Shown: piece by piece, positions 1 through 58,695 of the stretch
Numbering within the stretch: position 1 is the first letter of the stretch
How the letters are laid out: each line of letters opens with the position of its first letter
NCBI GenBank assembly: GCA_051362555.1
Contig: CM120648.1
Coordinates: 907,721-971,720 of the forward strand
Source of the DNA: Lingula anatina
Lineage: Eukaryota; Animalia; Brachiopoda
DNA: 64,000 nt
Direction of reading: 5' to 3'
Translations under genes and position numbers: made by a program
The notes under the pieces: model-generated
What the model was told of the DNA's origin: nothing
Database searches by the model: none
Seen by the model: the letters and a program-made list of their open reading frames with translations, nothing else

Positions 1-3000
1 GACATGGAGACGACCCTAGCAGCCAAGAGACGAAGAAGGGGGTTTCCAGAATACACAGACGTGAAATTCGAGGAAGAGATGTCTTGGTTCAAGAAAAAGG
101 GCCTCCTGACCAAGAAACTTCTCCAGGGCATCCTGGCGGCGGATTTCCAAGGTGTCGACCTCGATACAATGTTTTCCCTCCTCCAGCATTTTGACTTGTG
201 CTACGAGGTCCAGTGCAAGGAACAGCCGACTCTTTATTTCCCATGGTTCCTGTTTCAAAGTCTCCCTGATGACGTCCAGCAACTATGGCCTAAGACTATG
301 GAATCAGGCGTGCTGCAGCTTACCGTTGAGTTCCACTTCATCACGGTTGTCCCGCCGAGCCTCTTCGAGAGGATTCAGGTGATTCGAAAAGTTGTTAGTC
401 CTTGATATTTAAGCATGTGTCATAGATATGTTATGCCTGTTAATTGTCATTGTGACATGTACATGTTCATCATTTGATGCTCAAGCTTTAACATTTTTGA
501 AACTTACACGAGGTTTCTTTATATTTGAAACTTTTAAATACAGCATTTTATATATAACCTCTACTTATAAATATGTGTTTTTAATTGAAAGGTACGTCCC
601 TTTCAAAAGTTAGCCTTATCAAGATATTTTGAAAGATTTTTGTATTTTTAATTTTGAGATATGTTCACTTTATAATTAGTGATACTTTTAAGTTACAATT
701 CTCTAAATTAAATGGTGAAAAAATATAATTCTAGGTCCTCACACATTCCAAGGGACCGTACAAGCAGTTACCAAGACGAGACTGGAGCGAAGGTTTTTAC
801 ATGAGCCTTGGCGATATTAAGGTATATATGCAGAATCATAAGTCAACAAATGTTTAGCTCAAAGCGACCTCTGACGGAAGGGTGCGGTACTGCACACCTA
901 AGTTTAATCCAGCAGATTTGTGGATAATATTTTCCCATGAAACCGTAACTGATTTATTTTTTTTATTCTGTTTTTTAAATATTATTGAAAGTGCATCAAT
1001 GTTTTATTCACTTAGCAAAAATATGGGGAAAATCCATTGAAATGTGTAACGAGCATCAAGCTATTCATTTTTACCTTTTTAACGTTTATTTACCATCACC
1101 ATTCTATTTCCATGTAATGTATCATCATTGAAGAGCACATTATGTGATATTAATATTTACATTGAATTTGTATCACATTTCAACAGTTAAATACCTTTCC
1201 TCATTGGCCATCACAGGTGTTCGTGGAACGGTTTCAGTACCACAACGACGGCGTCCTCCAGGTCTCCGTGAGAGGCAAAGATTTGGGAAAACTCTGGGAG
1301 GAACTCAAGACCATGGTGACCACGATGCAGGGGTTGCTTGACCAGTGTCCGGGGGAGGCGTGTAACATCTACTACATCTGTCCCGGGTGTATCAGGTCTC
1401 AGATCGAGGGCTCTCGGGCCAAGAAGGAGGAGTGGAGCTGGGTGTGCACTAGCAGACCTGTAAGTTTTGGTTCGCGAAGTCGACGGTTCGCGGGTATCCG
1501 GTGTGACAGGAATGGTAATCCGCTAGGTTCAGTTGTCCGTTGTCATCACTCTGTACAGGTGACATTCGTCCCATATACTAACCTCGATACAAAGACTAAG
1601 CCTCAAGTGGGACCCCGGACTTCCATCTCTAGGACTACCATTCCTGTCACACCGATCTCCAGCAGGCAATTTTATCATTTGTGTTATGTACACGAATATA
1701 CTATAAAAATTGTCAATTTTTCCAAAACTTGTCTATTTTTCCAATCATAGGCGGCGCTCGAAAACAGGAGTTAAAAATTTAGGAAAGGACTTAATAAAAT
1801 ATGTTACGCCCTCAAAGTTACAAATAAGTTCCTCCAACAAAAAAAAACTTAACTTGGAGCTATTACCACTCCAATACTTAAGAGTCTAATAAGACGCCTT
1901 TATTACAAAGAAGCTACAGGTAGTATAAAGTGCGCTGCAGTGTATTAAATGATAGGGCCAGTTTTTCTCGTTTACAGTCAATTACAAATTTCCCTTATTT
2001 TGATAAAAAAACTGTTTGTGCCCACGAAACATCGATATGGGCGAAATGAGCTCTGATGTCTTTGAAGATAAAACAGAGAGAGAGATAGAGAGAGAGAGGG
2101 GTTAGTTCTTGTCTATACCTAACATCATCTGACGTCTTCCTAACAGGATGATGACGTTGCTGTGTCGGGACGCCTTGTTGCTGGGGCGACATCAGTGCCC
2201 TCTATCCCCTGTTACGATAACGCTCCAGTGGATGAGATGATTCCAGCGTGTCTTCAGTACCCGGAGATGTATAATGAAGGTAATGACGCACGTGCACGCA
2301 CAAGCATATTTACATGCGTTCTAGTTAAATTTTTAAAATGTGAATTAAAACATATCAGCATGTTTTTTTGTGTCTTTGGTGTTTTCCAACGAAATTATGT
2401 GCAAGTTACTTAGTTAATTTTTTGGGTATTGTAAATTTAGACTTTTTTTATTCATTATGCAAGTTGTATCAATCACAACTTTCTTTTTTAAGTGAAAAAT
2501 ACTTTGCAATTCATTATCTGTATTTATTTATCGGAATATTTCATGCTGTACTTAGCGTGTATCTATATTAAAATAACTTAATAAATAACTATAAAGCTTC
2601 GGTCTGCTTCTCCGCCCCCTTTTACTGCAATTTGTTACTGTGAAATGGAAATTGGACAGGGAAATATTGTATTATCGTGATGCCTGACTTTTTTTTTATT
2701 ATTAATTCCGATTTCTACTCTTTTTACTTCTAGATATGTACGAGCTTGTACGCGAGTACTTGTCTAGCCCGCAGATAAAACAAGAGTCCTCTGGTGGTGA
2801 GTATTGACAAATTAGAATTAAAAGAATACTGTACATGTATATTGTACAAATATATATTATATAAAAATTCACTTTCATCATGTAACATATTACGGATGTT
2901 TTCGTCTTTTCACATTCTCAACAGGGCTGATACCTGTACATGTATCATGTAAATTTATTTAAAATATTAGTATTCATTCATTTGATGAGTAAGTACAAAT

Positions 3001-3329
3001 GTAGTTGGCGTATGATAGAACCATCAACGTGAACCAAAATGAATTTATTCACCGCAAAAAATCAAGCGAATTTTGACATTGTTACAGAGTGTACAAATCA
3101 AGAAGCAGCAAACGACCAGGGATCTTCACTGGATCCATCAAGTCACCACCATCACCATTACCATCACTATCATAACCACTATAATACAACATACTGCACG
3201 CACAACAACATTAACAACTGTCAGTATGTACAGGTGGGGAATGAGAACATCATGGAGAGAGTTCCCGAGTACCTGTCTGAGCCACCGAGTGATGTTGAAC
3301 ACTGGGACCTCGATACCGACCTTAGGTGA
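1..3329 (+). CDS. ROCO (MFHAS1-like Roc-COR family) gene 1, 3' part: COR domain, CxxC region, His-rich linker, C-terminal RHIM; 5' end lies outside the window
   Basis: Exons <1-378, 735-821, 1217-1459, 2147-2279, 2734-2796, 3088-3329, all GT-AG and in phase. COR-type motifs LLQHFDLCY, LYFPWFL, VEFHFITVVPPSLFERIQ, RRDWSEG, LWEEL, QCPGE and YICPGC align motif by motif with the complete ROCO gene at 52.9-58.7 kb. The last exon encodes HHHHHYHHYHNHY...INNCQYVQVGNENIM. Confidence 0.85.
3210..3254 (+). other. RHIM (RIP homotypic interaction motif) coding segment, INNCQYVQVGNENIM
   Basis: Contains the core (I/V)Q(I/V/L)G plus the upstream I and downstream N-x-M positions. It closely resembles the human RIPK3 RHIM as recalled (NIYNCSGVQVGDNNYL). 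In frame in the terminal exon of ROCO gene 1. Confidence 0.8.
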
Positions 3330-6466: not shown

Positions 6467-6899
6467 TCTTTTTTGGCACTTTCATATTACTGGCTACTTC
6501 GTGCAAACTAAAATCTTCTGTAGCGATTTCAGGTTGCGTTATCACATGGTATTGAAAGGTATTTTACAAATGCACTTTGTGATCACCCTTGCTAGAATAA
6601 GTGCTTACTACGGTTTCAAAACTCTAAGGTGATTTTAAAATGATGAAAATTATATATACATCTTTCACACCCACTATGATCAGAATGGCAACTTGCTGCC
6701 ACGCCTTTTATATGTATCCTATGAACAAACTTTTTTCGAGTTTCAGTCACAAATTGAAGATTCACTCAGCAGCTGTTTCCCTTCACATTGAAAATACCAA
6801 CTGACCAATACTGGAGCCAGGGTTTTTTGTCCTCTTACCCTCAGTCAGATCGTTTTTCTTTCTTTTCTAACTACAACGTGACAGTACCTAGGTCATTGT

Positions 6900-9800
6900 C
6901 TACGAAACGGGACAGAAATTCAGCGCTGAGCCCTGGGCCCCTATTCCTTTTGAAAATACCCAAACAGTTTATAATACTTACAATACTTTACAATATTACA
7001 ATATTTTAGTTGTAGATACTTTTTAAAGTTATGAAACATCATTCAAATAAAACATATTTGATCAATTGAAATAATGTAGGTAACCATTATTGTATATTGA
7101 AAATAAGAAAGGGTAATTTCCATATTAAACCCAATTGACCCCTTACGTTATATTACTTAAATGTATCAAATATAGAGGTGTTTCACGTGTATCATTGGTA
7201 TAGAGTCAAACAAGGTGTTTAAGTATGATGAAACCTCAAAGAAGATTAATTTTTGTTGAACAGGTAAACACACAATGTAGGCTATGTCTTTACAATTCAA
7301 CACCTCATTATACTTATTCTGCATATTGAACATAACATCCCAAAACACAGTATCTTTACAAACGTGTGTACTTACCCCCATTAAGCTCACACGAACATCC
7401 ATTAAGTTTCCTCTTTTTCCCTCCTCGTTTTATCCCCTGGTCTGAAAGTAATTATTCACTCTTTATTTATTTTCTTATTAATTGATTTATTTTTCAATTC
7501 ATGTTATCCTTCATTTGTCATGATCATTGTTTTCTTTTTCTGCAAAAGATTTCAGATGCACTTTTGACATTTTTACGCAGGCTGGAAACTCTAAATTGAG
7601 GCGGAGAAAATGCAAAATGTCCCAAATTACACAAAATTATAATACATGACAAAAATTACATCACCGTGATAATATGCATTTATCCATTACATGCATGTTC
7701 TTAAATGTTAATGATAGGAAGGAGCAGAGAGAGATACCTGTGGAGTTAGAGAGAACGCAAACGGCACCAGTACACGTGTCAACCTACCGTCACTGCCCTC
7801 AAAAAGTAGAACCTTGGCACCAGGAAAAATTTTCCCTGCGAGCAAGCGCTTCCATTTGGTTTTCAGGTCGGGGCGCTGGGTCACGTTAAGAATGAACAGC
7901 GTTTCCTTGGGTACATCTGGCATGCTGGCCAAGATCTCCTGCACCGTCTGCCCTCGCTTCATTGCATGGCTTCTAATGTAATCAAATTAAAGTTGACGAC
8001 AATTATTCACATTCATTTACCGAAATTAATATTAAAATTTTGGTCGTGGAGACACAATACTATGCGTATACAGCTGGGTTTCGCCAAATACAAAACATCG
8101 GAGGATAAAACAGAATCTTGACATATATGGCATCTTTCATAGTTTGTATCTAAATGAGAGTAGCAATATTATATATTGGCCAGTGAATATGCCAAGTGAA
8201 TAATGTTTATAAATATACCATAAATATACAAATTATTTCTAAATAATGCAAGTACTAGCTGAACTCAATTCAAAACTTTATCATTAAAAGTCACAGACAA
8301 CTTTACCCTAAAATCTCTTCCACTGTTTCTATGTCTATGACTGCCTTGTAACCTCCCCATTCCCTCTGTCCAGATTCAGCACCGGAGTTTACCCACTGCC
8401 CACAGATAGTGGACTTCAAAAAGCTGCCATGCCTGGATTCAGTGACCTTCCAGGGGACCACACGATCCTCTGTTGTATTACGTGTGGCAGTTGCTGGCTG
8501 TGAAATGATGGATGGAGGATCTCTCTCCCAGGATATTGTAATGGGTTCTTTTCTGATGCTGATATCGTGTATTAGTTCACGTTGATCGTATCTGTATCTG
8601 GATAGAAGCTCCCATTCCAACACGGGCCAACTGACTGGAATATTAGAAAACTCATCTCAAATGAGTGTTGATAGATAACTGAATGTGGTATTTACAGGAA
8701 AAATATATAACACATAATATATAGCACTTAATGCATGCGATCATATCAGTTCTGCCGCATCACTTTGAACATCGTCTTGTGTAATTCTAAGAATTGAACT
8801 CCTCAGTTGATGCAATAAGCTAGGAGAGATAAGTGAAGACCAGTGGCTAAATTGGAATTTAAACCATAGGTATTACATGTATATAAGTTTTTTCGTCTAA
8901 ATGACTAGACACCATTATCTAAATTAAGGTTCCTCTTCATACGTCAAATTCGCAGCATATGCTAGGTGTGCAAATCTTTCCTGGTTTAATAATATTATAA
9001 TAGCTGACTCTCATATGTCATACAATAAACATATCAATACAACTGAATATATTTACGCATGAAGCACCATAGTTAACTTACTTAACATGCCATAGTTAAC
9101 TTACTTAACATGCCGTCTGCCAGGTCATCCTGCTCTACAAGTAGCAAAGCATCATACAGATACCAGCTAATTCCCTCCCTGTCCCCTGAAAGTAGAGTGT
9201 CCAGCATCTCCTGGACTTTCTCCACTCTGGATGGTTGCTGAAGTATGGTGGTTCTTTCATCCTCACTGACCATGCGTTTGCTGACAAGATGATCAAGTAC
9301 AAGATGAAGGTCTGGTTCAGATAGGTTTTCAGTTATCTCTAAGTATGCACTTAGTATTTTCCTCATACCCCTAGGTATCCAAACATCACGGCCTGCTCCT
9401 CTTTCCCATGAGTACTGTGTGGTCAGTATATTAAATGCCAACTCCTCTTGACCTGCACGCAGTAGTGCACAAGCCAAGACCCTCATTGCTCTTAGACCCT
9501 TGTTTCTTTTATTCATGACAATGTTCATCAGTTCCTGTGCTGCTTTATGACCAGATGTTCCTATTCGGTGCTGATCGTCTAGGATTTTGTGACGTTTGAG
9601 AGTTTTGGTTACATCAGCAAGTGTTGAAACTTTTTGTAGTGCTGTGCAGCTTTTCTCGTAATGCTCTTTTAAAGCCTTGACATGGTCAGGATCTCCGTCA
9701 AATACCACAGGGGGACATAACGCTTCAAAGGAAGATATAATTATAAATAAAATAATGTTGACTATAATGATAACAAATAAATAAAGGATTATTTGTTGCT

Positions 9801-10150
9801 CATACGTCTAACGACTACAAGTAACAAAATACTATCAATCAGACTTCTTAAAATGCTTCATATAGAACTTCCGGATATTTTAACTTTTCATATAACCTAG
9901 AATGAGAGTAGAGAGGGGCAATGTCGGGGCGAATATTCTGGAAAATGATAATCAACATAAAAAAGCTTTATTTTATTTATTTATTATTTATTTTTGCTTT
10001 TTATTCCTTTCAATTTGAATCACACATGTTGCCCTCTTCAGCACATTTCTCTTACAACAAATACACGCACTTGACTTGGAACAAAGTTTACAGATAACAA
10101 AACTGTGTGATGAATGAACATACTATAGGTTTTTGTGGGTATATACGTAT

Positions 10151-10184
<34 letters not shown>

Positions 10185-10597
10185 TGAAAGTTTTAAATCA
10201 ATGAACAGTTCACGACGTGAATGTTATATAACACTAACCTCTTTCATATAATTTCCTGATATCATCCTCCGCTTTCTCAACATTTTCTACAAGCCTCGCA
10301 ACGCCAGATATTTTCAACAGTTTCTTGAGCAACTCATATTGTCCCACTCTGATGTGACCTCCATCTTCCAAGGCATTCAACAGTTTATATGTATTGTAAT
10401 CCTCCATAGTACGCGCCCCACAAAAAAACTCCCCTTGAAAGTTGTTTCATAGCCTCTAACGCTTCCTTGGTAATATTTATGTTCAAATGAACAAACAGTT
10501 CATTTTGTCGTAGTCTACATTTCCTTTCTAACTCACGATTAGCCGAGTCTTGCGATGACGTAACCGGAGGTTGCAAGAGATCCTGGTACTCGTGCAT
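6900..10597 (-). pseudogene. Paralog A: DED-CARD-CARD-degenerate NACHT-like module; frameshifted in the DED exon (pseudogene or homopolymer sequencing error)
   Basis: Exons 10597-10239 (DED; ATG of MHEYQ; frameshift at the T7 run, plus-strand A7 at 10422-10428), 9722-9105 (618 nt, two CARD-like folds), 8634-8307, 7972-7788, 7441-7376; tentative last exon 6946-6900. The CARD exon (618 nt) and the second NACHT-like exon (185 nt) have the same lengths as in paralogs B and C. Confidence 0.7.
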
Positions 10598-16964: not shown

Positions 16965-17381
16965 TCAGATGAAAAGTACTGGGGTCATAAATGACCTTAC
17001 ATATTTTTCATAATTTAACCATATATTATAGTCAAGCAATATAATGAGAAATCCATGCACTTCAACCAACTATCATGAGATTCGTTACAAATAATCTTAC
17101 TTAGTTAATATACAAATACAACATAAGCATTTGTCAAAGAGTTATCTAGAGTAACCGATTCCCTCAAGTAAGGAACCGTCAAATATTCAATATCCTTCGC
17201 CTTCCCTATCAATTAAGATAGAACGGCCTAACATTTTCATTATCACACATGTTAAGAATAATATATATATACTCGCACAGGAAAAACACTTTTACTTTAT
17301 ATATATGTGGTTAAAATAATAAGCCCTACTTTTTTTTTTTTTTTTTTTTTTTGTTTGTTTGTTTGTTTGATTTGTTAATTG

Positions 17382-17437
<56 letters not shown>

Positions 17438-18956
17438 CCGTGTCTTTTTTTCTTCTTATTCCTTTCCTTGACCCAAGATGGTAAGATCTTTTATTCTCTA
17501 TGATATGGTGCATTGCTTACCCTTTGACGGGTCGACCCCAGTTGCTTCTGAAAATCACAAGAACAACTAGATAAAAATTTTATACGCGTATGTAACTGAC
17601 ACAACCTCTGCTAATTTACCTGATGCAGATGGCTGAATGTTCTGGTTATATAATGTTTATTCTTTTACTCTCAAGCAAATCGTTTTATTTCCTTTTTAAC
17701 CAACATGCTCACACACCTGTCTGTGTCCCTAATGTGGTGTTTCGTTGCTTCTTTGCACTGCAGTCTTCTGTTGATTCTGAAAATTACAAAAAGAATTGCA
17801 TTCGTATATAACCTTTTCCCAATCAACTGTTGAAAAACGGACGTTTATTTATTTTATTTTTTTTTAGAAACTTTCTTTTAAGATCACTAAGTAGTAAGGC
17901 AATATCGTTTCACATTCTGTAAAACGGGATTAAATTAAGGAAGTAAGTTAGGTTCGTTTTGTTAAAAGAAACCCTTGAACACCAACTATAGTCGATGGTT
18001 TTGCATACTTACCCCCACTAGTTTCAGTGGAATCCTGTTTTCTCTTCATTCCACCATGAGACATTCCTTTGCCTGGAAGTAAAAGGCACCTTATCATTTA
18101 TTTGATACGATATTATTCAGGTACGCCTGATACATGTATAGGTCATAGGCGGATACACCCATTCTCCTTTACAAAAACTAAATAAACAATGATGACACAA
18201 ACCAAACGAAAAAAAAACAATGCAAAGCCAAAACAATTGTTTTAAAATTTAAAAATTTTCTGAACACCACCTTTTGAATGCCTCACAAAACTATATATAA
18301 GTCAAATTAGGAAGACAATATTTATTAAGTAAATCATGGATCCTGAGAGAGAGAGAGAAAAAGAGTCAGTCCCCACGTCTTTAAGAAAAGCACACGTGTC
18401 TACCTACCGTCACTTTCCACAATAAGTAGAACCTTGGCGTCGTGAAAAAGTTTGCCAGACAGCAGTGGACTCCACTTGGTTCTCAGATCCGGCCGTTTCA
18501 TCGTGTTGAGGATGAATAACGTTTCATCTGGTATGACATCCAAGACTTTAAGTACCGTCTCCTTTGACTCCCTTAAAATGGAAAATAATCTTTATATCAA
18601 ACCTCCATTTCCTGTTATTCATTATCTTAATTAATCAATCCGATATTATGCACCCGTATGATAACATATTGAATTGCAAATATCAAAATAGTCTTAGTCA
18701 TGTTTTGCTGATTGTTTTGTAATCTCTCCTATTAAGTTGTATCATTTATTAAAATCCACATGTTTATTGATGCACATATTCATAGAGCTAGATAGTTAAA
18801 AAGAAAAAAAATATATTTAGAAATCCAATATATATATGCTAAAAATATTTTTATTCATATCAACACTAGAAATAATTGTTATGTTATTTCCTTTTCATCT
18901 ATCCAGTGCGATAAAGTGTTGTATTAGTTATATAACATATTGTAAAATCCAACTAA

Positions 18957-19000
<44 letters not shown>

Positions 19001-38081: not shown

Positions 38082-39529
38082 CCGTGTCTTTTTTCTTCTT
38101 ATTCCTTTCCTTGACCCAAGATGGTAAGATCTTTTATTCTCTATGATATGGTGCATTGCTTACCCTTTGACGGGTCGACCCCAGTTGCTTCTGAAAATCA
38201 CAAGAACAACTAGATAAAAATTTTATACGCGTATGTAACTGACACAACCTCTGCTAATTTACCTGATGCAGATGACTGAATGTTCTGGTTATATAATGTT
38301 TATTCTTTTACTCTCAAGCAAATCGTTTTATTTCCTTTTTAACCAACATGCTCACACACCTGTCTGCGTCCCTAATGTGGTGTTTCGTTGCTTCTTTGCA
38401 CTGCAGTCTTCTGTTGATTCTGAAAATTACAAAAAGAATTGCATTCGTATATAACCTTTTCCCAATTAACTGTTGAAAAACGGACGTTTATTATTTTTTT
38501 TTTTTTTAGAAACTTTCTTTTAAGATCACTAAGTAGTAAGGCAATATCGTTTCACATTCTGTAAAACGGAAGTAAGTTAGGTTCGTTTTGTTAAAAGAAA
38601 CCCTTGAACACCAACTATAGTCGATGGTTTTGCATACTTACCCCCACTAGTTTCAGTGGAATCCTGTTTTCTCTTCATTCCACCATGAGACATTCCTTTG
38701 CCTGGAAGTAAAAGGCACCTTATCATTTATTTGATACGATATTATTCAGGTACGCCTGATACATGTATAGGTCATAGGCGGATACACCCATTCTCCTTTA
38801 CAAAAACTAAATAAACAATGATGACACAAACCAAACGAAAAAAACAATGCAAAGTCAAAGCAATTGTTAAATTTTTTGAACACCATATTTTGAATGCCCC
38901 GCAAAAATATTTCTACGTCAAATTAGGAAGGCAATATTTATTAAGTTAATCATGAATCCAGAGAGAGAGAAAGAGAGAGAGAGTCAGTCCACATGTCTTT
39001 AATAAAGTGTGCACCTACCGTCACTTTCCTCAATAAGTAAAACCTTTGCCTCAGGAAGAATTTTGCCCGACAGCAGTGGACTCCAATTGGTTTTCAGATC
39101 CGGCCGTTTCATCGTGTTTAGGATGAATAACGTTTCATTAGGTATGACATCCAAGACTTTAAGTACCGTCTCCTTTGACTCGCTTAAAAGAGAAAATAAT
39201 TTTTATGTCAAACCATCATTTCTTGTTATTCATTATCTTAATTAATCAATCCGATGTTAGGCACTCGCATCATAACATGTTGAATTGCAAATATCAAAAT
39301 AGTCTAAGTTGTATCATTTATTAAAATCCACATGTTTATTTATTTACATTGCACATATTCATAGAGCTAGATAGTTAAAAAGAAAAAAATATTTAGAAAA
39401 CCAATATATATGCTAAAAAATATTTTTATTCATATCAACACTAGAAGTAATTGTTATGTTATTTCCTTTTCATCTATCCAGTGCAATAAAGTGTTGTATT
39501 AGTTATATAACATATTGTAAAATTCCAAC

Positions 39530-39576
<47 letters not shown>

Positions 39577-42328
39577 ACATTTTAGCACACTGACACCTAA
39601 TAAATTACAAAATATTAACAAAACTCACTATTCTAAAGTTACTTTCATAAAAAGTTTGAGCCTTTACCCTGAAATATCATCCAATATTTCCAAGTCGATG
39701 ACTGCCTTGTGACCTCCCCATTCCCTCTGTCCAGGTTCGTTGCTGGAGTTAGCCCACTGTAAACAGATCACGAACTTCACCAGTTCACCATGTTCGGAAT
39801 CAATTGCCTGCCAGGGTACCACACGTTCGTCAGGGCGCATGTGGGGCAGAGTTGTTGGCAGTGATCTGTTTCTTGACAGCAGATCTGCGAGTCTATCGCT
39901 GATGCTGAGATTGCGCAGTTTGTCTCTGTAACACTCACTTAGTATCTTTTCCAGTAGAGACCACCACCACATCGCTATCAGAATAATGAAAAGCATATTA
40001 TTTAAAAGTAACTCAAAAACAAAGTGTGGTTACACAGGCCCGTTGCCAGCAAATTCAAAAGGGGGAGTCTTTTCTGGAAAAGTGGACATTTACAATGAAA
40101 CTTATGTGTACCTAGATTTATTTTTACCTAAAATGGACCTTTTCCTGACAAAAGGGGCGTTCTTTGGAATCCTCCGACCCCCCTCCCCCCCCCCCCCACC
40201 CCCACCCGGCTACGGGCCTGTGGTATTTACAAAGAAGCTACATGTACATCGATCGCATTCGACATTAAGAAATCGCTCGTCGGGATCGTCAGTGCCTTTT
40301 ATTTATTTTTCATAGAACTTTAAACAATTTCAGGGGCGGATCCAGGATTTTTTGAAAGGGGAACCACCGATCCGAAGCCAACCCTTCCTCCCCCCCCCCC
40401 CCCCCCCCTTGACATGGGGTTCTGTGCCCGTTGCCCGAAATATGTTGGTATTTAAGAGGGCGAACAGTGCCATTTGGCACGGTTTAGAACTATGATTCAG
40501 CTAGTCAAAATTCTAATTTAATAGTGGACCAGAAATCGAAGGGGGGTCAGGACCCCCCTTTAAATCCGCCACTGAATTTCCTCAAGTTTTATCACATCCA
40601 AAATCATTAAAAAAACTATCTACAACCCCCCCTTCAGACCTTGAGTTCCAAGTTTGTATCTTACTTTTTTCAACAAATTTGGTTATAATCTAAATCTTAG
40701 TGATTAAAAAATTGTCGAAGTAAAATTGACTTGTTGTTATATAATTGTCTTACGCTCATAGTTTACCTTTCATTTGAAAGTATTGATATTCATTAATGTT
40801 TTCATCGTACGGCTATAAAGTATACCACGTCACCTACGAAGCTGCTTTCCGAATGACAGATGAGCGTGCACAATTATTCATAAAAAACACATCTTTTAAT
40901 GGTCAAACAAACTTCATAATTCATAATTCTCACTATTCGAATTTTAATTATCTGATCTAATGATAAGCACACAAACGCCTTCTACGTTTCAGGGCATTGA
41001 GTATGAATAAGCTGTTCTCATGTTTCAGTGTAGAACTATAGTTTTTGCATATACTTACCCAAATTATAAGCCTGTTCAACATTTCTTTTTACTGCATCCT
41101 GTGATACAGCTTTCCCTGAAAGTAAAAAACACATCAATATTTTGAGAGTGTGTGGCAGGTTTAAGAGGTAGCAGTATGTTCTTTTCAAAATCCTACTTCA
41201 CACATGCCCTTTGGTTAGATATCTTTCCTTTTAAAGCAAAATGAACATTTTAATTTACAAAAATAAAAAAGGAAAAAAAAAGACACATCTCAGGCTCGGA
41301 AAATACTCCAAAACATTGCACCAGTAAATATCTATTATGAACATTCAACACTGCAATATCACAGACCGCTTGTTTGAGGCATCTATAAATGGTTCACTTT
41401 AAAGAAGAACAGACAGCAAGAAAGAACACGCCTGACAGAAGGGCACGTGTGTCAACCTACCGTCACTGCCTTCAATTAGTAGAACCTTAGCGCCCGGAAA
41501 ACATTCGCCAGACAGCAAAGGTTCCCACTTAGTTTTCAGATCAGGACGTTTCATGGCATTGAGTATGAATAGGGTGCTCCGTGGTAAATCTGGTATGCTG
41601 GCCAAGGTCTCCTGCACCGTCTGCTTTCTTTTCCTAGCATGGTCTCTAATTAAAGAAAGAAGAAAACTCTATTACCAATGCCTAGTTCACGATCCCGATC
41701 CGCAAAAAATAATCTTCAAATTTGTACCAAATAGATAACAATCTTTCCAACCTCACAAAACTTCGTCGAATCTAAATCTTTGAACTAACACCTTCAATGG
41801 ATTTTACGTTACTATTGTGTTTTGTACTCTTCCTTAAACATTTTGTAAGTCAAAATGTCCACTAACCGCCAGTGTAAAAAAAATCAAGCAATATTAATAA
41901 TATAAAGATACACAGTGTGTATAAATTGTCACTTTGACTTTCTGAAAAAATAACTAAACTCGGCAATCCGAACCCTTATCATATAAAGTCAAAATATTTC
42001 CAGTTTTACCCTAAAACCTCTTCCACAGTTTCCACGTCTATGACTGCCTTGTAACCTCTCCATTTCCTCTGTCCAGATTCATCACTGGAGAAGGCCCACT
42101 GCCCACAGACTACAGTCTTCATAAGTTCACCATGTTCGGAGTTACTCGCCTCCCAGAATGTTACACGCTCATCAGCTGACACACGTGGCAGTTGTTGTCC
42201 TCTCTTTTCATCCAGGCCAGTGTATCTATTATGCATGCCAGTATGCATACTATATTTTATAGTGTAATAATGATTAAGTACCAAACTCAGCGGCTTCCAC
42301 CCTAAATCAATATCTGAAATTTGAAAAC

Positions 42329-42402
<74 letters not shown>

Positions 42403-45400
42403 GTATGTGTTATTTTTTGGAAAAAATCTAAAACGCACACAACATTCAATATGTATCTTCATAGCAGTTATGTTGCCTCACTAACTGGCCATCTTTCATT
42501 CAATAAAATTAATTCGGTCAATATGATTTTCTTAAGCTCATGCGAAGAGAGAAATTGTCGAATCATATGCCTAACTTGAAACGTAATAATTGCTGTAACT
42601 TTTAGTAGCTTATTATGCTTTGATGGTGGTTTTACTATTTGAATGACAATAGTCACCAGTATATAAAACAGTCTGCCATCAGTTAGATATGTAACATATG
42701 TTAGGTACAAAATCTTGCTTTTCCCAAGTTTTCTGGTTAAATAATGCGACCCCCCCCCCCCCCCCCCCCCAACGTGAGTGATGCCATTGAGATGTAAACA
42801 CAACTGAATATAACGAAACACCATAGTTAACTTACGTCTCATACAGATTGCCAGGTCAACCTGCCCTGCATGTGCCAAAGCCTCATTAAGAGCCCCCACA
42901 GCTCCCTCCCTGTCCCCTGAGAGTAGAGTGTCCAGCATCTCCTGGACTTTCTCCACTCTGGATGGCTGCTGAAGTATGGTGGCTCTTTCATCCTCACTGA
43001 CCTTGCCTTTGCTGACGAGATGATAAAGTACAAGATGAAGGTCTGGTTCAGGGAGGTCATCAGTTATCTGAAGGTATGCACTTAGTATTTGCCTCTTACT
43101 GTCAGGTATCTGAACATAACGGCCTGTTCCCCTCTCCCGTGAGTACTGTGTGGTCAGTATATTACATGCCAACTCTTCATGACCTGCATCCCATAGTGCA
43201 CAAGCCAACACCCTCATCGCTCTTGGACCCTTGTTTCTTTTATTCATGACAGTGTACAACAGTACCCGTGCTGTCAGCAGAGTAGGGGGTCTTATTGGCT
43301 GCTGTTCGTCTAGGATTTTGTGGCGTTTTAGTATATCTGTGACATTAGCAAGTGTTGAAACCTCCTGAAGTGCAGTACAGGTGTCATCGTAATGCTCTTT
43401 TAAAGCTTTGACGTAGCCAGGATCATCGTCATATACTTCAGGGGGACGCAGTGCTAAAAGGAAGAAATGACCATAAACAAAAAAATAATGATAACATTGA
43501 TGATAAATAAATAAGATATTATATGTTGCTCATACGTCCTACACTACACGCACAAGTGATAAATATATATTAAGCTAGATACATTAAAAATAAATAACTA
43601 GATGAAGCAGACTTGAATCCAAGTTTTTTTACACATACCTTTAATTGATAACATGTTAATACTTTTTTTCATTCAAAGACGTGCAGAGAGATTGGAGTCA
43701 TTTATTTTAAGGGGTATTTTAAACATAACAAAAATATTTTCACGAATATGTAAACTTGATAAATTTCTTTTTATTTTGAGATGCTGTGAGAAACCACTCC
43801 CGCTCGCACTTTTAAAGCATTTAAAAGAAAGGAATGTCATGTCAAACGCGCCTAACTTAATTTAAACTTCAATAAGTTACTGCTGTAACTTTACGCAGAT
43901 AATTAAGCTTTGATTGTGTTTATGCAATGTAATGGCTTTAGGCACCATTATTTAAAACAATCAGTCATAGCTATTCCCTCAAAGAGCCAAATTAGACTTG
44001 AGAAAATACATCGTCACTGTGCGTACAACACAAATATGGAATAGCCTACCCGATCAAGTTGTCAGGACAAAAGGCCTCAACTCTTTTAAGAACAGACTAG
44101 ACAAGTAGTGGAATGACCAGGAACTCAAATATGACAATTACAGGTCCGAAATTAACATCACCGGAAGTCACAGTTAGCTTTGGAGGAAGAGTCCGATAAC
44201 GGGGATACAGTAGGAACCTGAATCGGAAATCAACGCTAGTCTAATCTAAGTCAAAATTTATTTTTCATTTCGAGACGCCATGAGAAATACTTGTTTAGTT
44301 TGTCCTTCAGTTGTTTGTAAAGCCGTAGAATTTTTTAAACTAGCATTACTTAGTTTAGCCTATATACACCTGATAATCGTAATGCATTTACAACATTGGT
44401 CAAAAAGGTTGTCCCACCTTCAGTATCATGCACTTTTATTTATATATGATCACACCACAGGAGAAGATTGTTATAAATAGTGATTTTCATTCCAGATACC
44501 ATAACTAACATGATTAGTGATACGGAAAATGCAAACTAGCTGTGAATATATCAAAATTTAATACCATTTTTATTACATGTACCCTCTCAAATCCGACGTT
44601 TCACTGTGGTTTTCACAGAGGTAAAGAAATGTCCATTAAATTGAAATGACACCACCAAATCTCACCATATTCTCACACATTTAGTATTAGGGCGTGCTCG
44701 TTAAAGGCGCCATCAACAGGAGATAATTACAGTACATGGTAAACACACACGCTAATAGACACGTGACCTTTAACGAGCACACCCTAATGCTAAATATGTG
44801 TAAATTTGGTGACATTTGGTGGTTTCATTTCAATTTAATGGGCATTTCTTTACCTCTGTGGAAATGACAGAGGAACATCAGATTTGAGGGGCACATGTAA
44901 TACATGTAAATAAATGGTATTAAATATGGGTATCTTAACCGCTAGATTGTATTTTCTGTACCACTGATGTGATCATTCATAAATAAAAGCACATGAAAAC
45001 GGGAGTGGGACAACCTTTTTGACCAATGTTGTATATGCATTTACAGGTATAATCTGACCCGACACGAGAACAATATACATGGACTTGGAACAACATCATG
45101 AACAACATCATGGCGGCGGAAATAAAATGTGACTGATTGTTGTCAGGTGCAATATTTTTAGAGTGGGAAAAGTTAAATTGGAAAATACTGTCAACACTGC
45201 ATGAACCAGTTATTCCAATTTATATGACACAAAAAGTTTTATTGCACTTACCTCTTCTGGATATCTCCTCTATGTCATATTCAGCTTTCTCAACATCTTC
45301 CACAAGTTTTTTTACACCTGCATCTTTCAAAAGTTCCTTGAGCTTCTCATAACGTCCAACTGTTATAACACACCGGTTATGCAAGGCATTCAGAATGTCG

Positions 45401-45594
45401 TAAGGAGTTTCACAACTTTCCAATTCTCGGTCTCCTAAATGGATTCCAGTTAGAAGTTGTTTTATGTTCTGTAGCACAGGTGTCGTAATATTGTTGTTCA
45501 AATAAACAAACAGTTGATTTTGTCGCAACCGTCTCGACATTTCTTCCTCATTCAAGCCTTCCAATCCCCTACATTGTTTGGTAAGGTACTCCAT
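37593..45594 (-). CDS. Paralog C: DED-CARD-CARD-(degenerate NACHT-like)x2-basic tail, about 712 aa
   Basis: Exons 45594-45252 (DED), 43453-42836 (CARD-CARD), 42313-42010 + 41645-41461, 41115-41059, 39974-39668 + 39182-39019, 38701-38642, 38419-38360, 38190-38164, tentative terminal exon 37606-37593. Exon sizes match paralog B except the first module-1 exon (304 vs 298 nt). Confidence 0.82.
44365..45051. mobile_element. Foldback MITE of about 690 bp in the DED-CARD intron of paralog C; paralog B keeps the left arm only (about 28600-29020)
   Basis: TGCATTTACAACATTGGTCAAAAAGGTTGTCCCAC pairs with GTGGGACAACCTTTTTGACCAATGTTGTATATGCA; TTAGGGCGTGCTCGTTAAAGG pairs with CCTTTAACGAGCACACCCTAA; the intervening arms also pair. 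Confidence 0.8.
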
Positions 45595-52915: not shown

Positions 52916-55900
52916 TTAACTTGTGGTCACTTGTGATGGCTGAACATTGGTAATGTTTGTATCACCAATATGAACTCCATTGCTACCAGAAATGTTGATG
53001 GTTTCATTATGCTGATGATGGTGTTCTTCCTTCAAATTCACCACTGTAGCCTTCTTCCCTCTTTTTGAATTCTTTTTCCTGACAGAGCCTTTCTTAACCT
53101 GGTCTGGAAATTTAAAAGACCACAAAAATAATTATTAGGATGAATGACAGTATTATCTTTTCATGACTTGCAAGTGGACCAACTTCAAATATTATACAGT
53201 GAGTCAATGACATATAAAGCATGGATGCTGTTTTATTTTATTATGTGTGCCTTAAGTGTTATTATCATTATTTTTTTGTTTGTTTTTATCTCTACACTTT
53301 GTTTTAAAAAATTAAAAAAGGCATATACAATGATACATATAAATACATATACACAAAGAAAATATATTTCCAGTTGGAAAAAACATTAAAATATTTGTAA
53401 AACTTTTCCCATTCAAAGAAACTTGCTGAAAAAAATCTACATTTTAATTTTAAACTTAAATTGTGATTGTCATCTTAACCTGTATAAAAGCTATCAAATA
53501 TATTTAATTTAATCAGTTTTAATAAATATGCTAATCTATCACTCAAAAACTTTCCTTACTATCCCTACACCGCACACAGTCATCCATTTTCACATAGCAC
53601 TTCAAAATAAACCATGTTATCAGTACTTTTTTTAGTAGACCTTAACCATTGAGAGATTCCATATAGTTTTTCTAAAGGGGTGATGGATGAATTACTCTTT
53701 GGCTTTGTCTTGTTTCACTCAATTTTTTGGGGGGGAGGGGGGAGAGAAAGGTATACAACCCAGGCCTGTAGCCAGCAATTTCAGACATGGGGGGGATATA
53801 GTCTTTTTCTGAAAAAGCAGAGCTTTTACTCTAAAACCTTCACTAGATCAAATTTTACCCAGAGGGAACCTTTTCCCAGCAAAAAGGGCAGTCCTTTCTA
53901 ACCCCCTGAAACCCCCCCCCCCCCCCCCGGTTATGGGCCTGCAACCAAAACCGGGGGAAGAGGAGGGGCCATATGCCCAATGTGCCTCCTGGATCTGTCT
54001 TCAAAACATTTGACCTAAATATTACCTTTTTGAACACATTTCTTCCTACAAATCTTCTCATAGTCTCTCAGTTGTTTACAGCAGCCTGAAAAGAGATATT
54101 TGTTAACTTTTTCTTTTTGACATATGCAGGAAATGAGAAAATGGTCAATAAAAAGACATTGAGGAATTATAGCTATTTAAAAACATGAATACACATTCCA
54201 AACATAATTAATTATAATAGTGAAATAATACCGATGTGTGCATCTGATTTAAGTGACCTCTTCCTAAAATTCAATGTTTTCCATCCCTTTAAATTAAAAA
54301 GGCCTAGGGTGCAAGTGGGGATATAAAGCAAAGCATGAATTTACAACAGTAAAAACAATTAATAATGTAATTTCCTTAAAACTATGTTTTAAATTCATTT
54401 TTAATATTTTCAGATGATTCAAATGGGCATTTTTTTAGTATATCTGAATGAATCCTAACCATCAACAACTGATAAAGTACAATTATACCTTTTGAACTAA
54501 GCATAGGGTAGTGAAAAACAGCAGGGATTTGGGGTGCATTCGGCTGTCCATGGCACGCAACTGTGTTACTGATGATACAATGGCGAAAGCTGGCAAAGGC
54601 TGGTAGGGTTGTGACTGTATCCCAGGGTAGTTTTAAAGGCTTCTTGGACCCCTCCTTTGTGCAGGCTGGACACAGGTAGATGACATCTGATGTCTCCCCT
54701 GGATATTCTGTCAACAGGTCCTGAAAGAAGACATTATTTTGTGTTGTAAAGAAAAGTGTGAAGAAAAGGCTCGGTCAGGTACGTGTCACTCAATCACCTG
54801 CATTTCTCAAGTAGTCAGGTGGCTACGTCCCAAATATTTCCAAAATTGTGCAAAATTTGAATACAGCATGCAATTTTCCATGATGAATGACCAATGGATG
54901 TTTGTCAATTCTGGATAGGTTGGCAACTCCAAAATTTATTAGAAGCTGGATGAGCAGGTTTGTTAAAATATGCTTCCTCTGTACACATATTTTTATACAC
55001 ACCCAGATCTCACTAAAACAAAAGCTAAATTTGTTAATTTTTCTGTATGTAATCGCCAGCTTTTCAGCAGGAAGAATCATGTTTTATGTGTCAATCTAGC
55101 TGACAGCATTCAGGAAGAGTCTACGCAGAGTTGGGTCAATCAACACTTTATGATCATTTCTTTGGGATGAGCCTCATGGTAATTTTTGTCTTAACATTTA
55201 TAATACTGTGTGTCAGTTTGGAATTTGAGTTTATTAAGGTGACTAGGACCACATTCCCAATGCCATACATATTTAGATAAATCTATCCCCCTGGGGAGTC
55301 TCACTAGATTGTTGTCAGCTTAACAGGCTTAAATGTCTGTCCCTCCTACTAAAAGCTGCAAGGGGGTAAGTAACTATGGTGCGTGCTCGACTGATAGCAA
55401 TTTAGCGTGAACCCCCAGGGAGTTAGGTCAATCCGGATGGATTGATCTAAATCTCTGGGAATGCACTCTAAGGCTGTGCACTGATCAATCTGGCAAAACT
55501 GTAAGCTAAAGAGAGAAAGAGAGAGAGAGAGAGAGGGAGGGAGGGAGGGGGAATTCTTGTCACTAACCTGCATTTCTGTATGTATCCAGCAAAGAATCTT
55601 CCACAGTTCTTCAAACTCCACAATCTTGCCCCTCACTGCAACCTCGATCTTGGCTTCATTTTGTTCCTGAACTCGTCTGATCAAAATTCTAGAGCTGCCA
55701 TACCGGGTGAACATTCCATTGCACCAGTCTCTTCGCTGGGAGTCCTCAAATGAACAAACACTGCAGTGGAGTCGGCCCTGAAGCTGGTATAGAAAATTAT
55801 TTTATTCATGAGGTGTCCAATTACACTGAGACAGAGTATGACAGCAAGGTCATTCTATGTGCTTGGCTTCCTTCTGCATCACCTTCAAGAAAAGACTGAT

Positions 55901-58695
55901 ATGGTTTGAATCATAGGCCCCATTCATAATAGGGGACTAACTTGTCTGAGGGTCAAATGTGGCTCACCCGCTTGAATTCTTCCCCGCAGGATATCTATTC
56001 AGTGTCTATTAGCGGATTAAATGGCAAGCTTTGTAGTGGGTTGCCATATTTGACCCTCAGACTAGTTAGTCCCCTATTCTGAATGGGGCCTATGATAGAG
56101 TGTTAAGTAAGTAAAAAATCTCACCATGTCCTAGCTATTTGGAGCCCAAGCTTCTTATAACATCAATATATTGGATTAATACATAAGTAGTCCTGCAGCT
56201 TCAAGACAAGAATGAAACAGACGAAGATCAACAAGATCCACATGTGCCTTAAAATATTTCAAAACTTTATCAAAATGGAAGTTTACCTTTTCAAAATAAC
56301 TTATGGGGACCACAATGAGGAAATGGAACTCCACTTGGAGTTGAATCTGGTCATCTTCTAGAACACTGGGCCAGACATGTGGCAGGTCTTCAGGTTCTTC
56401 TTGCTTGAAAAGGTACCATGGAAAATACAGCCCTTGAGTGCCCTTGCCAAAGTGAACTTGGTAGCAAAGGTCGAACTCCTGCAGGAGTGAGAACAAAAAG
56501 TCCTGTTCATTATCTTCAAAATCAGCAAGAATGTTGGCCATCAGTCTTGGAATCAGAACACCTTTCTTAAGCAGATGCATTTCTCTGTCAAACCGTGTCT
56601 TTGTGCAGGTGTACAATCCCCTGGCCTTCTCTTCTTTCAGGGTTTCAAAAAGTTTGTAATCGAACACCCTTTTTAGGAAATCTATCATTCGGCCAGTGTC
56701 ATGGATAACTGAGTCACAAAGTCTGGAGTTTTGTCTATGCCACAATATACAACCCCATTTGTGAAGAAAATCCAACTGGGTCTCAAAGGCCTTTTTCTTA
56801 CTGTGCGTTTTTATGAATTTAGAGACAGTGTCAAAAGCATCTTTTAAGGGTTGAAACCAGGTGCGTTGGGTTGTTCTGTATCCATTACAATGTTCCCATA
56901 TTCTGTAGGCATCTCCAACAGACATGTGCAGCGACTGGGGTTTTAAATTCCCTTCTGTCTGTGCTTTGGTCTTGTGCTTCATGACCTCATCTGCAAACTC
57001 TACCCAATTGGGTGGCAGCAGCAGGGCATTTTCATTAGCTATGCCTTGGAGTTCCTTTCTGATTTCAAGAATCCCATGGTACTTCAAAGAGCTTATGGTA
57101 AAAAATTTCTTATTAATGCAAAGCATGTTGTCTAGTTTATTCTCCAGACTCTTCCTTTTCATTTCAAGCTTTTGGCGCTCTTCTCTTTTCCAAATGCGTT
57201 TGCTTTTAAGTTGAGTTTCAACTTCCTTCAGTTTGCGACCAATGTTCTTTTTGTACACTTGTTCCTGGTAGTGATTCACCCTCTCTGTGACATGCTGAAT
57301 CCTACTTTTGATCTCTTCCTTGGTGAGTAAATCAGATTTTGAACCTACAATCATAACCTTCACACCTGGGATTCGAGACTGCAATTTGAGGATCCAAAAG
57401 CCAATGCTGTTAAGATAGGCATTCGTGGTACATGTACAATCATACTTCGAGAGGTCAAACATCAAAATCACCACTGCATTTTGTCTAAGAAGCAACGGGC
57501 ATATAACTTTATACATTTCATGGCCACCAAAGTCCCAAAAATTAAACACTGTGTTTCCATCACTAATAAAGGATTCATTTACAACTGTAGTGTAGTCTCC
57601 CCTTTCAGTAACAAAAGCGTGACAAAGTCTCAGACTTTCACAAAAACTGGTTTTCCCAAATTCAGACTCTCCAACCACAAATACTACCTGCCTCCTGCCA
57701 TACCTTGCCCCTATACGATCATAAAGTTTCATATCATGTTGGTACTGCAAAATGGCTTCCACACCAAGCTCACAAACCTCAAGAGGAGGTTCTTGAAGTG
57801 GGTTTTTAACAAAATCAAACTTCTTCAGCTGCACAAGCTTTTGCAACGATGGCAAATGTGTAATTTGGTTGTGACGGATATCAAAAATCTTCAACTTGGT
57901 CAAATTATCCACAATGAAGACAGGAATTGCTGTAAGTTGGTTGTTTGAGACATTCAGTTCTGTGAGATTTGATAAACGTCCAACAGCATCAGGAATGGTT
58001 TCCAACATATTTTTGTGGATGCGAAGTGATTCAAGAAATTGCAGGCTTGCAATTTGTTCTGGAATTTCAGTAAGCCTGTTGTTATTTATGTCTAACCATT
58101 TCAGATTTTGGAGCTTTAAGACACCTCTAGGAAAGTGTGTGATTGCATTGTGACTTACATCTAGAACTTCTAGATTTCCAAGATTCCCAATTTCATCAGG
58201 TACTTTCTCTATACCACAACTCCAAACAAAAAACTGTTGGAGATTTGTCAATCTTTTAATACGCTTGGGAATTTTCTTGATTGGGTTATTGGCAACATGA
58301 AGCCATGTCAATTTCTCTAGTTTTGTAACAGAGACAGGCAACTTAGAGAGTCTGTTCCATCCCAAGTGAAGTGTTTCCAATAGTGGTGGAAGTGTTTTAG
58401 GAAAACATGTTCTTTTGTTTCTTGACACATCAAGAACCCTAATGCTGTTAAAATTCTCCAAACACTTCAAATTGTTTATGGTACCAAGCTCTGTTCCACT
58501 CCAGTCAACCTTATTCCTATCATCATTTCCAAGTTTTCTGATATTTCTTTTATAATTATGATTGTCTGGACGTAAATTGATAAAATAAAGTACTGGTAAT
58601 AGTAGTAGTAGTAGTAGTAGTGCACCACCAAACACAATGCCATCCCCACTGTTACTTAAAACTTCATATGCATTCTGTGCATGTTGCAGTATCAT
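52916..58695 (-). CDS. ROCO gene 2 (MFHAS1-like): N-terminal hydrophobic anchor, LRR array, Roc GTPase, COR, CxxC, basic/His linker, RHIM-like C-terminus; about 1034 aa
   Basis: Exons 58695-56287, 55783-55568, 54720-54489, 54085-54026, 53103-52916 (3105 nt, in frame). About 10 LxxLxLxxN repeats; P-loop GESEFGKTS; G3 WDFGGH; G4-like VGSKSD; COR motifs LHKWGCILW, LLQEFDLCY, LYFPWYL, RRDWCNG, EYPGE, YLCPAC. The last exon encodes EEHHHQHNETINISGSNGVHIGDTNITNV. Confidence 0.92.
52955..52999 (-). other. RHIM-like motif INISGSNGVHIGDTN (Q-to-H variant core)
   Basis: Same spacing as RIPK1/RIPK3 RHIMs (I-x5-V-[Q/H]-I-G-x-x-N). It sits at the same terminal position after a His-rich tract as the canonical RHIM of ROCO gene 1. 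Confidence 0.65.
55916..56090. mobile_element. Hairpin MITE flanked by TA in an intron of ROCO gene 2
   Basis: GGCCCCATTCATAATAGGGGACTAACTTGTCTGAGGGTCAAAT pairs with ATTTGACCCTCAGACTAGTTAGTCCCCTATTCTGAATGGGGCC; TA on both sides. Confidence 0.85.

Follow-up and report, generated by a model that had tools for sequence, protein, structure and literature searches.

ROCO GTPase genes with RHIM-like tails flank an array of DED-CARD genes in the brachiopod Lingula anatina

The window analysed, a stretch of 64,000 nucleotides from Lingula anatina (GCA_051362555.1, contig CM120648.1, positions 907,721 to 971,720), contains five identified genes within 58.7 kb, complete or near-complete and each with death-fold or RHIM modules. 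Two MFHAS1-like LRR-Roc-COR genes (ROCO1 and ROCO2) flank three DED-CARD genes (A, B and C). A first-pass annotation of this DNA had assigned death-fold or amyloid modules to all five genes, which is upheld by Pfam matches and gene models, and its view of a cluster in active duplication also stands. A Pfam scan of eight intergenic frames of the window gave no credible match. Raw RNA reads labelled as this species were aligned to the window, with low depth (about 0-13).

The 3' part of ROCO1 (1..3329, forward strand) comprises the end of COR-A, COR-B, a linker and the RHIM-like tail, in six exons (1-378, 735-821, 1217-1459, 2147-2279, 2734-2796, 3088-3329) with GT-AG introns and an open frame. 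The exon-3 donor at 1459 was preferred to one at 1558, which was dropped; P0155, which the gene matches at 94.3% over 381 aa, agrees with 1459. The LRR-Roc portion precedes the window and can be seen in the database model P0006. ROCO2 (52916..58695, reverse strand; 1034 aa), about 33% identical to ROCO1, has the order anchor-LRR-Roc-COR-RHIM, in five exons (58695-56287, 55783-55568, 54720-54489, 54085-54026, 53103-52916), again with GT-AG introns and an open frame. Its first exon matches the Pfam profiles LRR_8 (E 7.6e-31), Roc (E 1.9e-11) and COR-A (E 4.5e-8), and its 97% identical RefSeq counterpart P0005 matches Roc (E 2.8e-12), COR-A (8.4e-8) and COR-B (3.8e-7). The Roc-then-COR order that marks ROCO GTPases is thus found in the window exon and P0005, and in P0006 for ROCO1. 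The Roc domain of ROCO2 keeps the GxxxxGK(S/T) P-loop, G3 and G4; the ROCO1 models P0006 and P0155 have the P-loop and G4, G3 being unmatched by the pattern used. GTP binding, hydrolysis and a dimer switch, the biochemical marks of ROCO GTPases, are predicted. Residues 21-39 of ROCO2 (58579..58635, reverse strand; Kyte-Doolittle 2.67) form a hydrophobic segment predicted to be a membrane anchor, such N-terminal anchors occurring in 3 of 151 relatives. A similar segment is present in P0006, so that both ROCOs open with one, an addition to the first-pass annotation. ROCO2 alone is CpG-depleted (observed/expected 0.22, vs 0.61-0.82 in the other four genes), which suggests regulation differing from theirs.

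Four of the five ROCO1 introns are joined in RNA reads, including the one leading into the RHIM exon (4 reads from 2 runs), most ROCO1 reads being only 90-95% alike and possibly derived from alleles or paralogues. The earlier expectation that the RHIM exons are spliced into ROCO transcripts therefore holds for ROCO1; for ROCO2 it found no such backing, as no intron joint occurs among the 15 matches listed of 367, in an alignment swamped by poly-G and repeat reads that would hide ROCO2 joints.

All three array genes lie on the reverse strand. Gene A (6871..10597) has the order DED-CARD-CARD-one degenerate NTPase-like module; its model (exons 10597-10239, 9722-9105, 8634-8307, 7972-7788, 7441-7376 and a last one of about 6950-6871) is 94.8% identical to P0002. 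In this assembly the gene has an altered last-exon junction and, near 10422, a frameshift of one base, absent from P0002 and from 17 of 31 reads. Gene B (17105..29582; 945 aa, 12 exons, GT-AG introns, open frame) is modelled as DED-(CARD-CARD)x2-two degenerate modules-tail, and gene C (37733..45594; 741 aa, 11 exons), a gene model 69% identical to P0001, is DED-CARD-CARD-two degenerate modules-tail. A 618-nt exon encodes two CARDs, and gene B holds this exon twice. Of the DED-CARD-pseudoNACHT layout proposed at first, the CARD is present and the DED probable, but there are two CARDs per gene (four in B) and two modules in B and C. RNA reads show two of the five gene A introns and cover the CARD exon of gene C, with no joint among the matches listed; among the aligned reads, none was seen to span a DED-CARD or a CARD-module joint.

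The death folds of the array differ in how well they are recognised. The DED matches its Pfam profile over positions 3-80 of 82 in genes C (E 1.7e-7) and B (E 9.5e-7) at 29-32 bits, under the cut-off of 35.9, and its structure model has a pLDDT under 55. The second CARD (CARD2) exceeds the Pfam cut-off in all four exons (E 2.6e-9 to 3.5e-6), and its predicted model aligns 89 residues to the Apaf-1 CARD (Z 14.2, rmsd 1.7). The first (CARD1) has no Pfam match above cut-off; its four copies are all matched by the CARD2 profile (E 0.0002-0.002), and its models (pLDDT 80-88) resemble CARDs of the NOD2, CARD14, RIPK2 and CARD8 clusters (TM 0.62-0.67), the best match being a NOD2 cluster CARD (TM 0.65). 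The six-helix CARD fold is found in both. One end of CARD2 is hypervariable (27072..27161, reverse strand, in the first copy of gene B; matching patches at 22243-22332 and 42837-42926): the two gene B copies differ there by 19 replacement and 0 silent changes, and the intron upstream of the patch shows 0 differences in 412 positions between copies.

The degenerate STAND-like NTPase module occurs at 7788..8634 (reverse strand) in gene A, with further copies at 20694-21768, 18408-19398, 41461-42313 and 39019-39974. In the alignment, Walker A GK(S/T) and an acidic Walker B are absent from all five window copies. Helical domains and C-terminal LRRs are likewise absent, the gene models ending in a short tail, as do P0001 and P0002. 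A dN/dS of 0.21-0.43 in ten of ten pairs indicates purifying selection on the degenerate module. Its predicted alpha/beta model (pLDDT 43-69) overlays the NBDs of Apaf-1 (2-268) and CED-4 (3-276) with a poor rmsd of 13.7-15.5, and fold searches with array models were dominated by CARD2. No match to the module was found in Pfam, PDB-sequence profiles, PADLOC or Atlas, nor with its profile among 159 ROCO proteins; a homologue search returned P0001 and P0002 only, and a metagenome motif scan gave four matches, none of them NACHT. The module may bear a likeness to NACHT motifs; the NACHT label is unproven, and the model offers a hint of a STAND-like fold.

The RHIM core consensus is (V/I)Q(V/I/L/C)G (PMC9444067). 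The ROCO1 motif (3204..3254, forward strand; core VQVG at 3228-3239) satisfies it, has flanks that by eye resemble RIPK3 in the alignment of PMC4262963, and matches Pfam PF12721 (RHIM) with E 0.0068 and 16.4 bits, below the curated 20-bit cut-off. The ROCO2 motif (52949..53002, reverse strand; core VHIG at 52975-52964), seen also in the tails of P0003 and P0005, has H in place of Q and so fails the consensus, and is called RHIM-like for that reason; in Pfam it matches HET-S only (E 0.068), with no RHIM match. The database models P0155, P0003 and P0005 have these tails at their ends too. A RHIM-like pattern, tuned after inspection of both ROCO tails, occurs in the six frames of the window at two places, both ROCO C-termini; 100 shuffled windows gave 0.02 matches each on average. 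Judged by these motifs, both tails are likely amyloid seeds.

In ROCO relatives the slot after COR, here filled by the RHIM-like motif, holds CARD, Death, TIR, GT4 or SAM. Of the 60 relatives in which COR-B is complete and followed by a tail, 15 end in Death, 2 in Death plus GT4, 5 in GT4, 13 in CARD, 5 in a RHIM-like motif and 20 in other tails. A loose pattern, written after inspection of the tails, identifies 6 of 149 relatives as ending in a RHIM-like motif (controls: 0 of 149 reversed, 2 of 1480 random windows), including amphioxus and a hemichordate; a profile seeded with both window tails finds 2 of 149 only. The ROCO tree implies at least four gains or losses of the RHIM; it contains no known vertebrate MFHAS1, that name being an automatic RefSeq label. 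Lingula has at least seven CARD-tailed ROCO paralogues outside this locus. The first-pass idea of the ROCOs as GTP-switched receptors gains support from this shared slot, which fits a sensor-switch-effector reading.

Several known systems share parts of this architecture. MFHAS1/MASL1-like ROCOs, after which the RefSeq counterparts are automatically named, have the same LRR-Roc-COR order, to which the Lingula pair adds the C-terminal RHIM-like tail and N-terminal hydrophobic anchor; human MASL1 binds GTP, and its complexes and toxicity are under GTP control (PMC3995007). In LRR-AP-GTPase-COR counter-invader proteins the C-terminal effector varies (Kaur et al. 2021, PMC8195603), and Trichoplax and Aplysia ROCOs bear CARD, Death or TIR (PMC11378527, PMC9334734). 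They have in common with the Lingula ROCOs a repeat sensor, a GTPase switch and an exchangeable effector slot, whereas the Lingula effector is an amyloid motif; RHIM is absent from the main text of PMC8195603 and PMC9334734. RHIM proteins in the compared literature are kinases, a TIR adaptor, a nucleic-acid sensor, peptidoglycan receptors and NACHT proteins. RIPK1, RIPK3, ZBP1, TRIF and the amphioxus proteins have the RHIM at a usual death-fold site, as Kajava et al. (2014, PMC4262963) describe for amphioxus, and ROCO1 has the VQVG core with RIPK3-like flanks, in a spiralian host. The text of that paper has no 'Roc', 'GTPase' or 'LRR', and the 'other domains' of its Figure 1B may include such a protein. 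The first-pass annotation knew of no described system with this combination; a literature search likewise found no LRR-Roc-COR-RHIM architecture, and Gerdol et al. (2018, PMID 29278680), on Lingula immunity, may describe these families.

For the array, NOD2-type CARD-CARD-NACHT-LRR receptors also place an NBD-like alpha/beta module after CARDs in tandem; the array differs in its N-terminal DED, eroded Walker motifs, tandem-duplicated module, up to four CARDs, and lack of helical domains and LRRs. FADD/ASC-type adaptors and CARD-only inhibitors are further points of comparison, the former combining two death-fold kinds without an enzyme, as the array does. Bacterial iSTAND and iSTAND2 resemble the array in keeping eroded NTP-binding motifs in immune proteins beside death-like domains (PMC8195603); well-studied eukaryotic STAND systems offer no functional precedent for inactive versions, according to the same paper.

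The ROCOs are likely membrane-anchored, GTP-switched RHIM sensors, and the array is probably a distinct family, young and fast-evolving, of non-enzymatic death-fold adaptors that neighbours the flanking genes but would not work with them; the two parts together are held slightly more firmly than an even chance. A cue at the ROCO LRRs would shift the nucleotide and dimer state of Roc-COR, the unstructured tails would gather at the membrane and nucleate a RHIM amyloid, and this could recruit a RIPK/IMD-like or CARD-RHIM adaptor encoded elsewhere, leading to NF-kB activation or death. Array proteins may link or cap assemblies of CARD proteins (NLRs, CARD caspases, the CARD-tailed Lingula ROCOs) and DED caspases; the nucleotide-blind module would then be a scaffold or a bait, and variation in the CARD2 patch would retune partner choice or evade antagonists. 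Counting against the RHIM-sensor part are the sub-threshold Pfam scores of both tails, the H for Q in ROCO2, and a report that found neither RHIM-bearing PGRPs nor Imd in brachiopods (PMC9835746).

It is possible, if doubtful, that the array proteins descend from a CARD-CARD-NACHT-LRR receptor and act as dominant-negative decoys, which would enter NLR or apoptosome rings and either block these or soak up inhibitors made by pathogens. The loss of Walker motifs from a module under purifying selection, its overlay on Apaf-1 and CED-4, the NOD2 cluster match of CARD1, the diversifying CARD2 and the presence of CARD-NACHT-LRR receptors in Lingula (PMC11508797) all point this way; however, NACHT ancestry lacks profile support, the overlay and its model are poor, and an activating bridge fits the DED and CARDs just as well. 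The decoy reading concerns the sign of the array's action and is compatible with RHIM sensors beside a separate array.

Whether the five genes form one system, as first proposed, bears on the next reading, in which ROCO-RHIM sensors act through a bridging RHIM-CARD or RHIM-Death adaptor on DED-CARD proteins that relay or damp caspase activation. Their shared modules within 58.7 kb, reads for ROCO1 and A-like genes in the same three runs, the CARD-RHIM proteins of bivalves (PMC12452177), and the first rank of a Lingula ROCO CARD (P0009, E 0.0015) when 159 proteins are searched with the array CARD2 profile favour it. It is nonetheless unlikely: ROCO1 and ROCO2 have no CARD or DED, and the array has no RHIM core in the six-frame pattern search, as the first-pass annotation had also noted; the CpG content of ROCO2 differs from that of the array; array and ROCO CARDs are just 22-32% identical over longer alignments; and array relatives outside Lingula were not found in database searches (array proteins of at least 358 aa), whereas RHIM-like ROCO tails reach deuterostomes. 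In RefSeq, a fragmented assembly in which array proteins of at least 358 aa were compared, both ROCO counterparts have a scaffold length of 517,517 and the closest array proteins lie on scaffolds of 370,637 and 407,816 bases. The RHIM-less array, the CpG contrast and these scaffolds speak against a single system, and the CARD-tailed Lingula ROCO paralogues would be more natural CARD partners for the array than the RHIM-tailed pair. A fuller version, a single undescribed death pathway with GTP-gated amyloid nucleation by membrane-anchored ROCOs, a RHIM-death-fold bridge and neighbouring DED-(CARD)2-4 proteins with a conserved nucleotide-blind STAND bait and a positively selected CARD surface as specificity code, is decidedly improbable; if true, no RHIM signalosome switched by a GTPase would have come before it, and an animal would be using an inactive STAND domain. 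Very unlikely is that the tails are low-complexity RHIM lookalikes and the array recent, decaying duplicates, as the scores under cut-off, the broken gene A and the low read depth might suggest, since the motif is confined in the window to two ROCO C-termini, is present in both despite their divergence and turns up again where distant ROCOs end, genes B and C are intact, and module dN/dS is below 1 in every pair.

On the preferred reading of RHIM sensors beside a separate adaptor family, a Roc-COR switch wired to a RHIM would offer a minimal system in which amyloid nucleation reports the output of the ROCO GTPase cycle, a matter still in question for LRRK2, DAPK1 and MASL1. It would also extend RHIM-like motifs to a brachiopod, a member of a phylum reported to lack RHIM-bearing PGRPs and Imd. 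The array would exemplify, in an animal, an eroded NTPase-like module under selection together with a CARD surface changing by replacement alone; both the purifying selection on the module and the excess of amino-acid change at the CARD2 end are new relative to the first-pass annotation.

The genes and motifs at this locus are real. ROCO2 (58695-52916, minus strand) comprises a 1034-aa frame in five exons with GT-AG introns, and encodes in order a hydrophobic segment (residues 21-39), LRRs, a Roc domain whose P-loop is intact, COR-A and COR-B; a basic linker then leads to the VHIG motif at the C-terminus. ROCO1 (1-3329, plus strand) is present in the window only as its 3' 381 codons, which match the database model P0155 at 94.3% through the last residue, VQVG motif included. 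The LRR-Roc part of ROCO1 is supplied by a second model, P0006, whose N-terminus is also a hydrophobic segment, a feature of only 3 of the 151 proteins examined. At window position 378, P0006 continues into the first intron and then stops, without the COR-B and RHIM tail seen in reads and in P0155. The two ROCO proteins are ~33% identical in their overlap, yet the RHIM-like motif is terminal in both. Protein searches found P0003, from RefSeq Lingula anatina, as a close relative of ROCO2 and no close relative outside that set; the close relatives of the array's CARD exon (618 nt, coding CARD1 and CARD2) are the RefSeq L. anatina proteins P0001 and P0002 only. Since identity is 94.8% between array gene A and P0002, and 97% between ROCO2 and its counterpart P0005, the window represents a Lingula haplotype other than that of these records.

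The ROCO1 tail scores 16.4 bits against Pfam RHIM, under the cut-off of 20, and the sole match of the ROCO2 tail is HET-S (E 0.068). The ROCO1 core conforms to the RHIM core consensus of PMC9444067, and its flanks, compared by eye, resemble RIPK3 in the supplementary alignment of PMC4262963; the ROCO2 core has H in place of Q. A RHIM-like pattern, set post hoc once the tails were known, occurs in six frames of the window at the two ROCO tail sites only, against 0.02 expected. Raw reads from four runs, mapped for splice joints, join ROCO1 introns 378-735 (n = 7), 821-1217 (n = 7) and 2279-2734 (n = 8), and four reads cross intron 2796-3088 into the RHIM exon. The splicing of a RHIM exon into a ROCO transcript, proposed in the first-pass annotation, is thus borne out for ROCO1. 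The joint 1459-2147 is not among the read joints listed; within this third intron lies a palindromic repeat (1544-1651) whose two arms are joined on opposite strands by many reads. In read set X7, 466 of 535 reads are only 90-95% alike, many of them on a repeat, and therefore alleles or paralogues may contribute to the ROCO1 read support. Read depth over ROCO2 exon 1 is about 0-3, and no ROCO2 joint is among the 15 of 367 joints listed.

ROCO-RHIM is a new version of the known LRR-Roc-COR-effector type, and is found again in other marine animals. No description of Roc-COR-RHIM proteins was found in the literature searched, and the source-data files of PMC8195603 may list such architectures; term look-ups in PMC6321704 and PMC7075850 matched references only. 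A Roc-COR-A search of 1.84 billion representatives gave 678 matches, of which the best 150 were examined. Among the 149 left after setting aside P0003, 60 combine a full COR-B with at least 25 residues of tail. Purpose-built profiles seeded with Pfam-confirmed examples class these 60 tails (from the best 150 of 678) as 15 Death, 2 Death plus GT4, 5 GT4, 13 CARD, 5 RHIM-like and 20 other; a domain search found TIR and trypsin tails among the relatives too. CARD-tailed L. anatina ROCO clusters number at least seven (Pfam-confirmed for P0008 only). A profile for which the window's two tails served as seeds matches 2 of the 149 C-termini (P0007 and Branchiostoma floridae P0135, with VQVG). A looser pattern, composed post hoc with the tails in view, matches 6 of 149 (controls: 0/149 reversed, 2/1480 random windows), adding a Glandiceps, two more Branchiostoma and a Callorhinchus protein. 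The last, P0136, has a weak RHIM-like C-terminal stretch seen with the loose pattern only; if this tail is real, the architecture extends to vertebrates. In one B. floridae ROCO cluster (P0039, P0156, P0157) the models terminate in a RHIM-like tail or a SAM domain, possibly as alternative last exons. A quick LG+G4 tree was built from 45 Roc-COR cores, namely those classed proteins whose P-loop was usable and four further rows. In it ROCO1, ROCO2 and P0007 group together (SH-aLRT 100), placed weakly (69) next to a nine-member clade of CARD-tailed proteins, mostly named Lingula. The RHIM label requires five changes on this tree, four of them forced by starred branches, subject to long-branch warnings.

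The array genes form a family of Lingula whose pattern of selection is unusual. All three genes lie on the minus strand: gene C (45594-37733) encodes a 741-aa DED-CARD-CARD-module-module-tail protein, gene B (29582-17105) carries the CARD-CARD exon in two copies (945 aa), and gene A (10597-6871) has a single degenerate module. P0001 shares the layout of gene C and P0002 that of gene A; no description of DED-CARD-CARD-degenerate NTPase proteins was found in the literature searched. CARD2 lies above the Pfam cut-off and overlays the Apaf-1 CARD (Z 14.2, rmsd 1.7), while CARD1 is supported by Atlas structure matches (TM 0.62-0.67), pLDDT of 80-88 and similarity to CARD2. All domain-bounding introns, and likewise those before both RHIM exons, are phase 1, which suits exon shuffling. 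RefSeq isoform P0004, compared with P0001, skips the 57-nt exon that links the two modules (41059-41115, 20276-20332). Reads join two of the five gene A introns (16 and 13 reads); its DED-CARD and CARD-module joints were not seen among the reads. Near 10422, gene A has an extra base that is missing from P0002 and from 17 of 31 reads; its last junction is also altered. These defects reflect either a null allele or an assembly error. Its CARD exon (9105-9722) differs from those of B and C by a dS of about 0.25, and its module (7788-8634) from the others by 0.71-0.88, a contrast that suggests exon replacement or conversion.

The degenerate module, with its putative likeness to NACHT motifs, was named by none of the sequence methods used (Pfam, PDB profiles, PADLOC, Atlas, homologue search). 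AlphaFold, run on a 17-row alignment, predicts strand-helix-strand-helix-helix-strand-helix-strand (pLDDT 43-69), and the top Foldseek matches, spanning about 300-415 columns, are the CARD plus P-loop proteins RIG-I, Apaf-1, CED-4 and Dark. Of 50 VIA rows, three carry model residues 235-497 onto Apaf-1 2-268 or CED-4 3-276 (rmsd 13.7-15.5). The predicted structure hints at a STAND nucleotide-binding subdomain, with NACHT and NB-ARC not separated by the overlay; the NACHT of the earlier pseudoNACHT label is thereby a candidate reading. Walker A and Walker B are eroded in all five copies; despite this the module is maintained, as dN/dS lies at 0.21-0.43 in every one of 10 pairs (upper bounds ≤0.80).

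The CARD exons of B and C have dN/dS of 1.7-2.2 (Fisher p 0.047-0.068 when no transition bias is assumed, 0.017-0.027 under a bias of 2). In the last 30 codons of CARD2, a window selected post hoc and compared in non-independent pairs, replacement/silent changes number 19/0 between the B copies and 19/0 and 17/1 between these and C. Among 2000 random placements, clustering this strong arose 0, 0 and 10 times. An unseen paralogue may have supplied the patch by conversion, but that should introduce silent changes. Between the B copies, the compared introns differ at 0 of 412 positions upstream and 6 of 123 downstream.

The first-pass annotation had tentatively joined ROCOs and array in one immune or cell-death system. 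A shared pathway is possible but unsupported. Arguing for it, the genes are close together, ROCO1 and A-like genes have reads in the same runs, CARD-RHIM proteins exist in bivalves (PMC12452177), and the best match of the array CARD2 profile is a Lingula ROCO CARD, a match that implicates ROCO paralogues other than ROCO1 and ROCO2. However, the array is without RHIM cores, and CpG o/e is 0.22 in ROCO2 against 0.61-0.82 in the other genes. Gene-body methylation in invertebrates relates CpG o/e to germline expression, and the contrast suggests that germline expression is steadier for ROCO2 but not for the other genes. P0005 and P0006 lie on RefSeq scaffolds of the same length (517,517), and P0002 and P0001 on scaffolds of 370,637 and 407,816, a weak comparison given the fragmented assembly and an array-protein search that covered proteins of at least 358 aa. 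On these three counts the single system is not borne out. At 62362-62667 (plus strand), an open frame with no Pfam match resembles coding exon sequence from a sixth gene that extends beyond the window. Between gene C and ROCO2 (46246-49244 and 49611-50170) lie diverged tandem repeats, together with a repeat at which read depth is very high.
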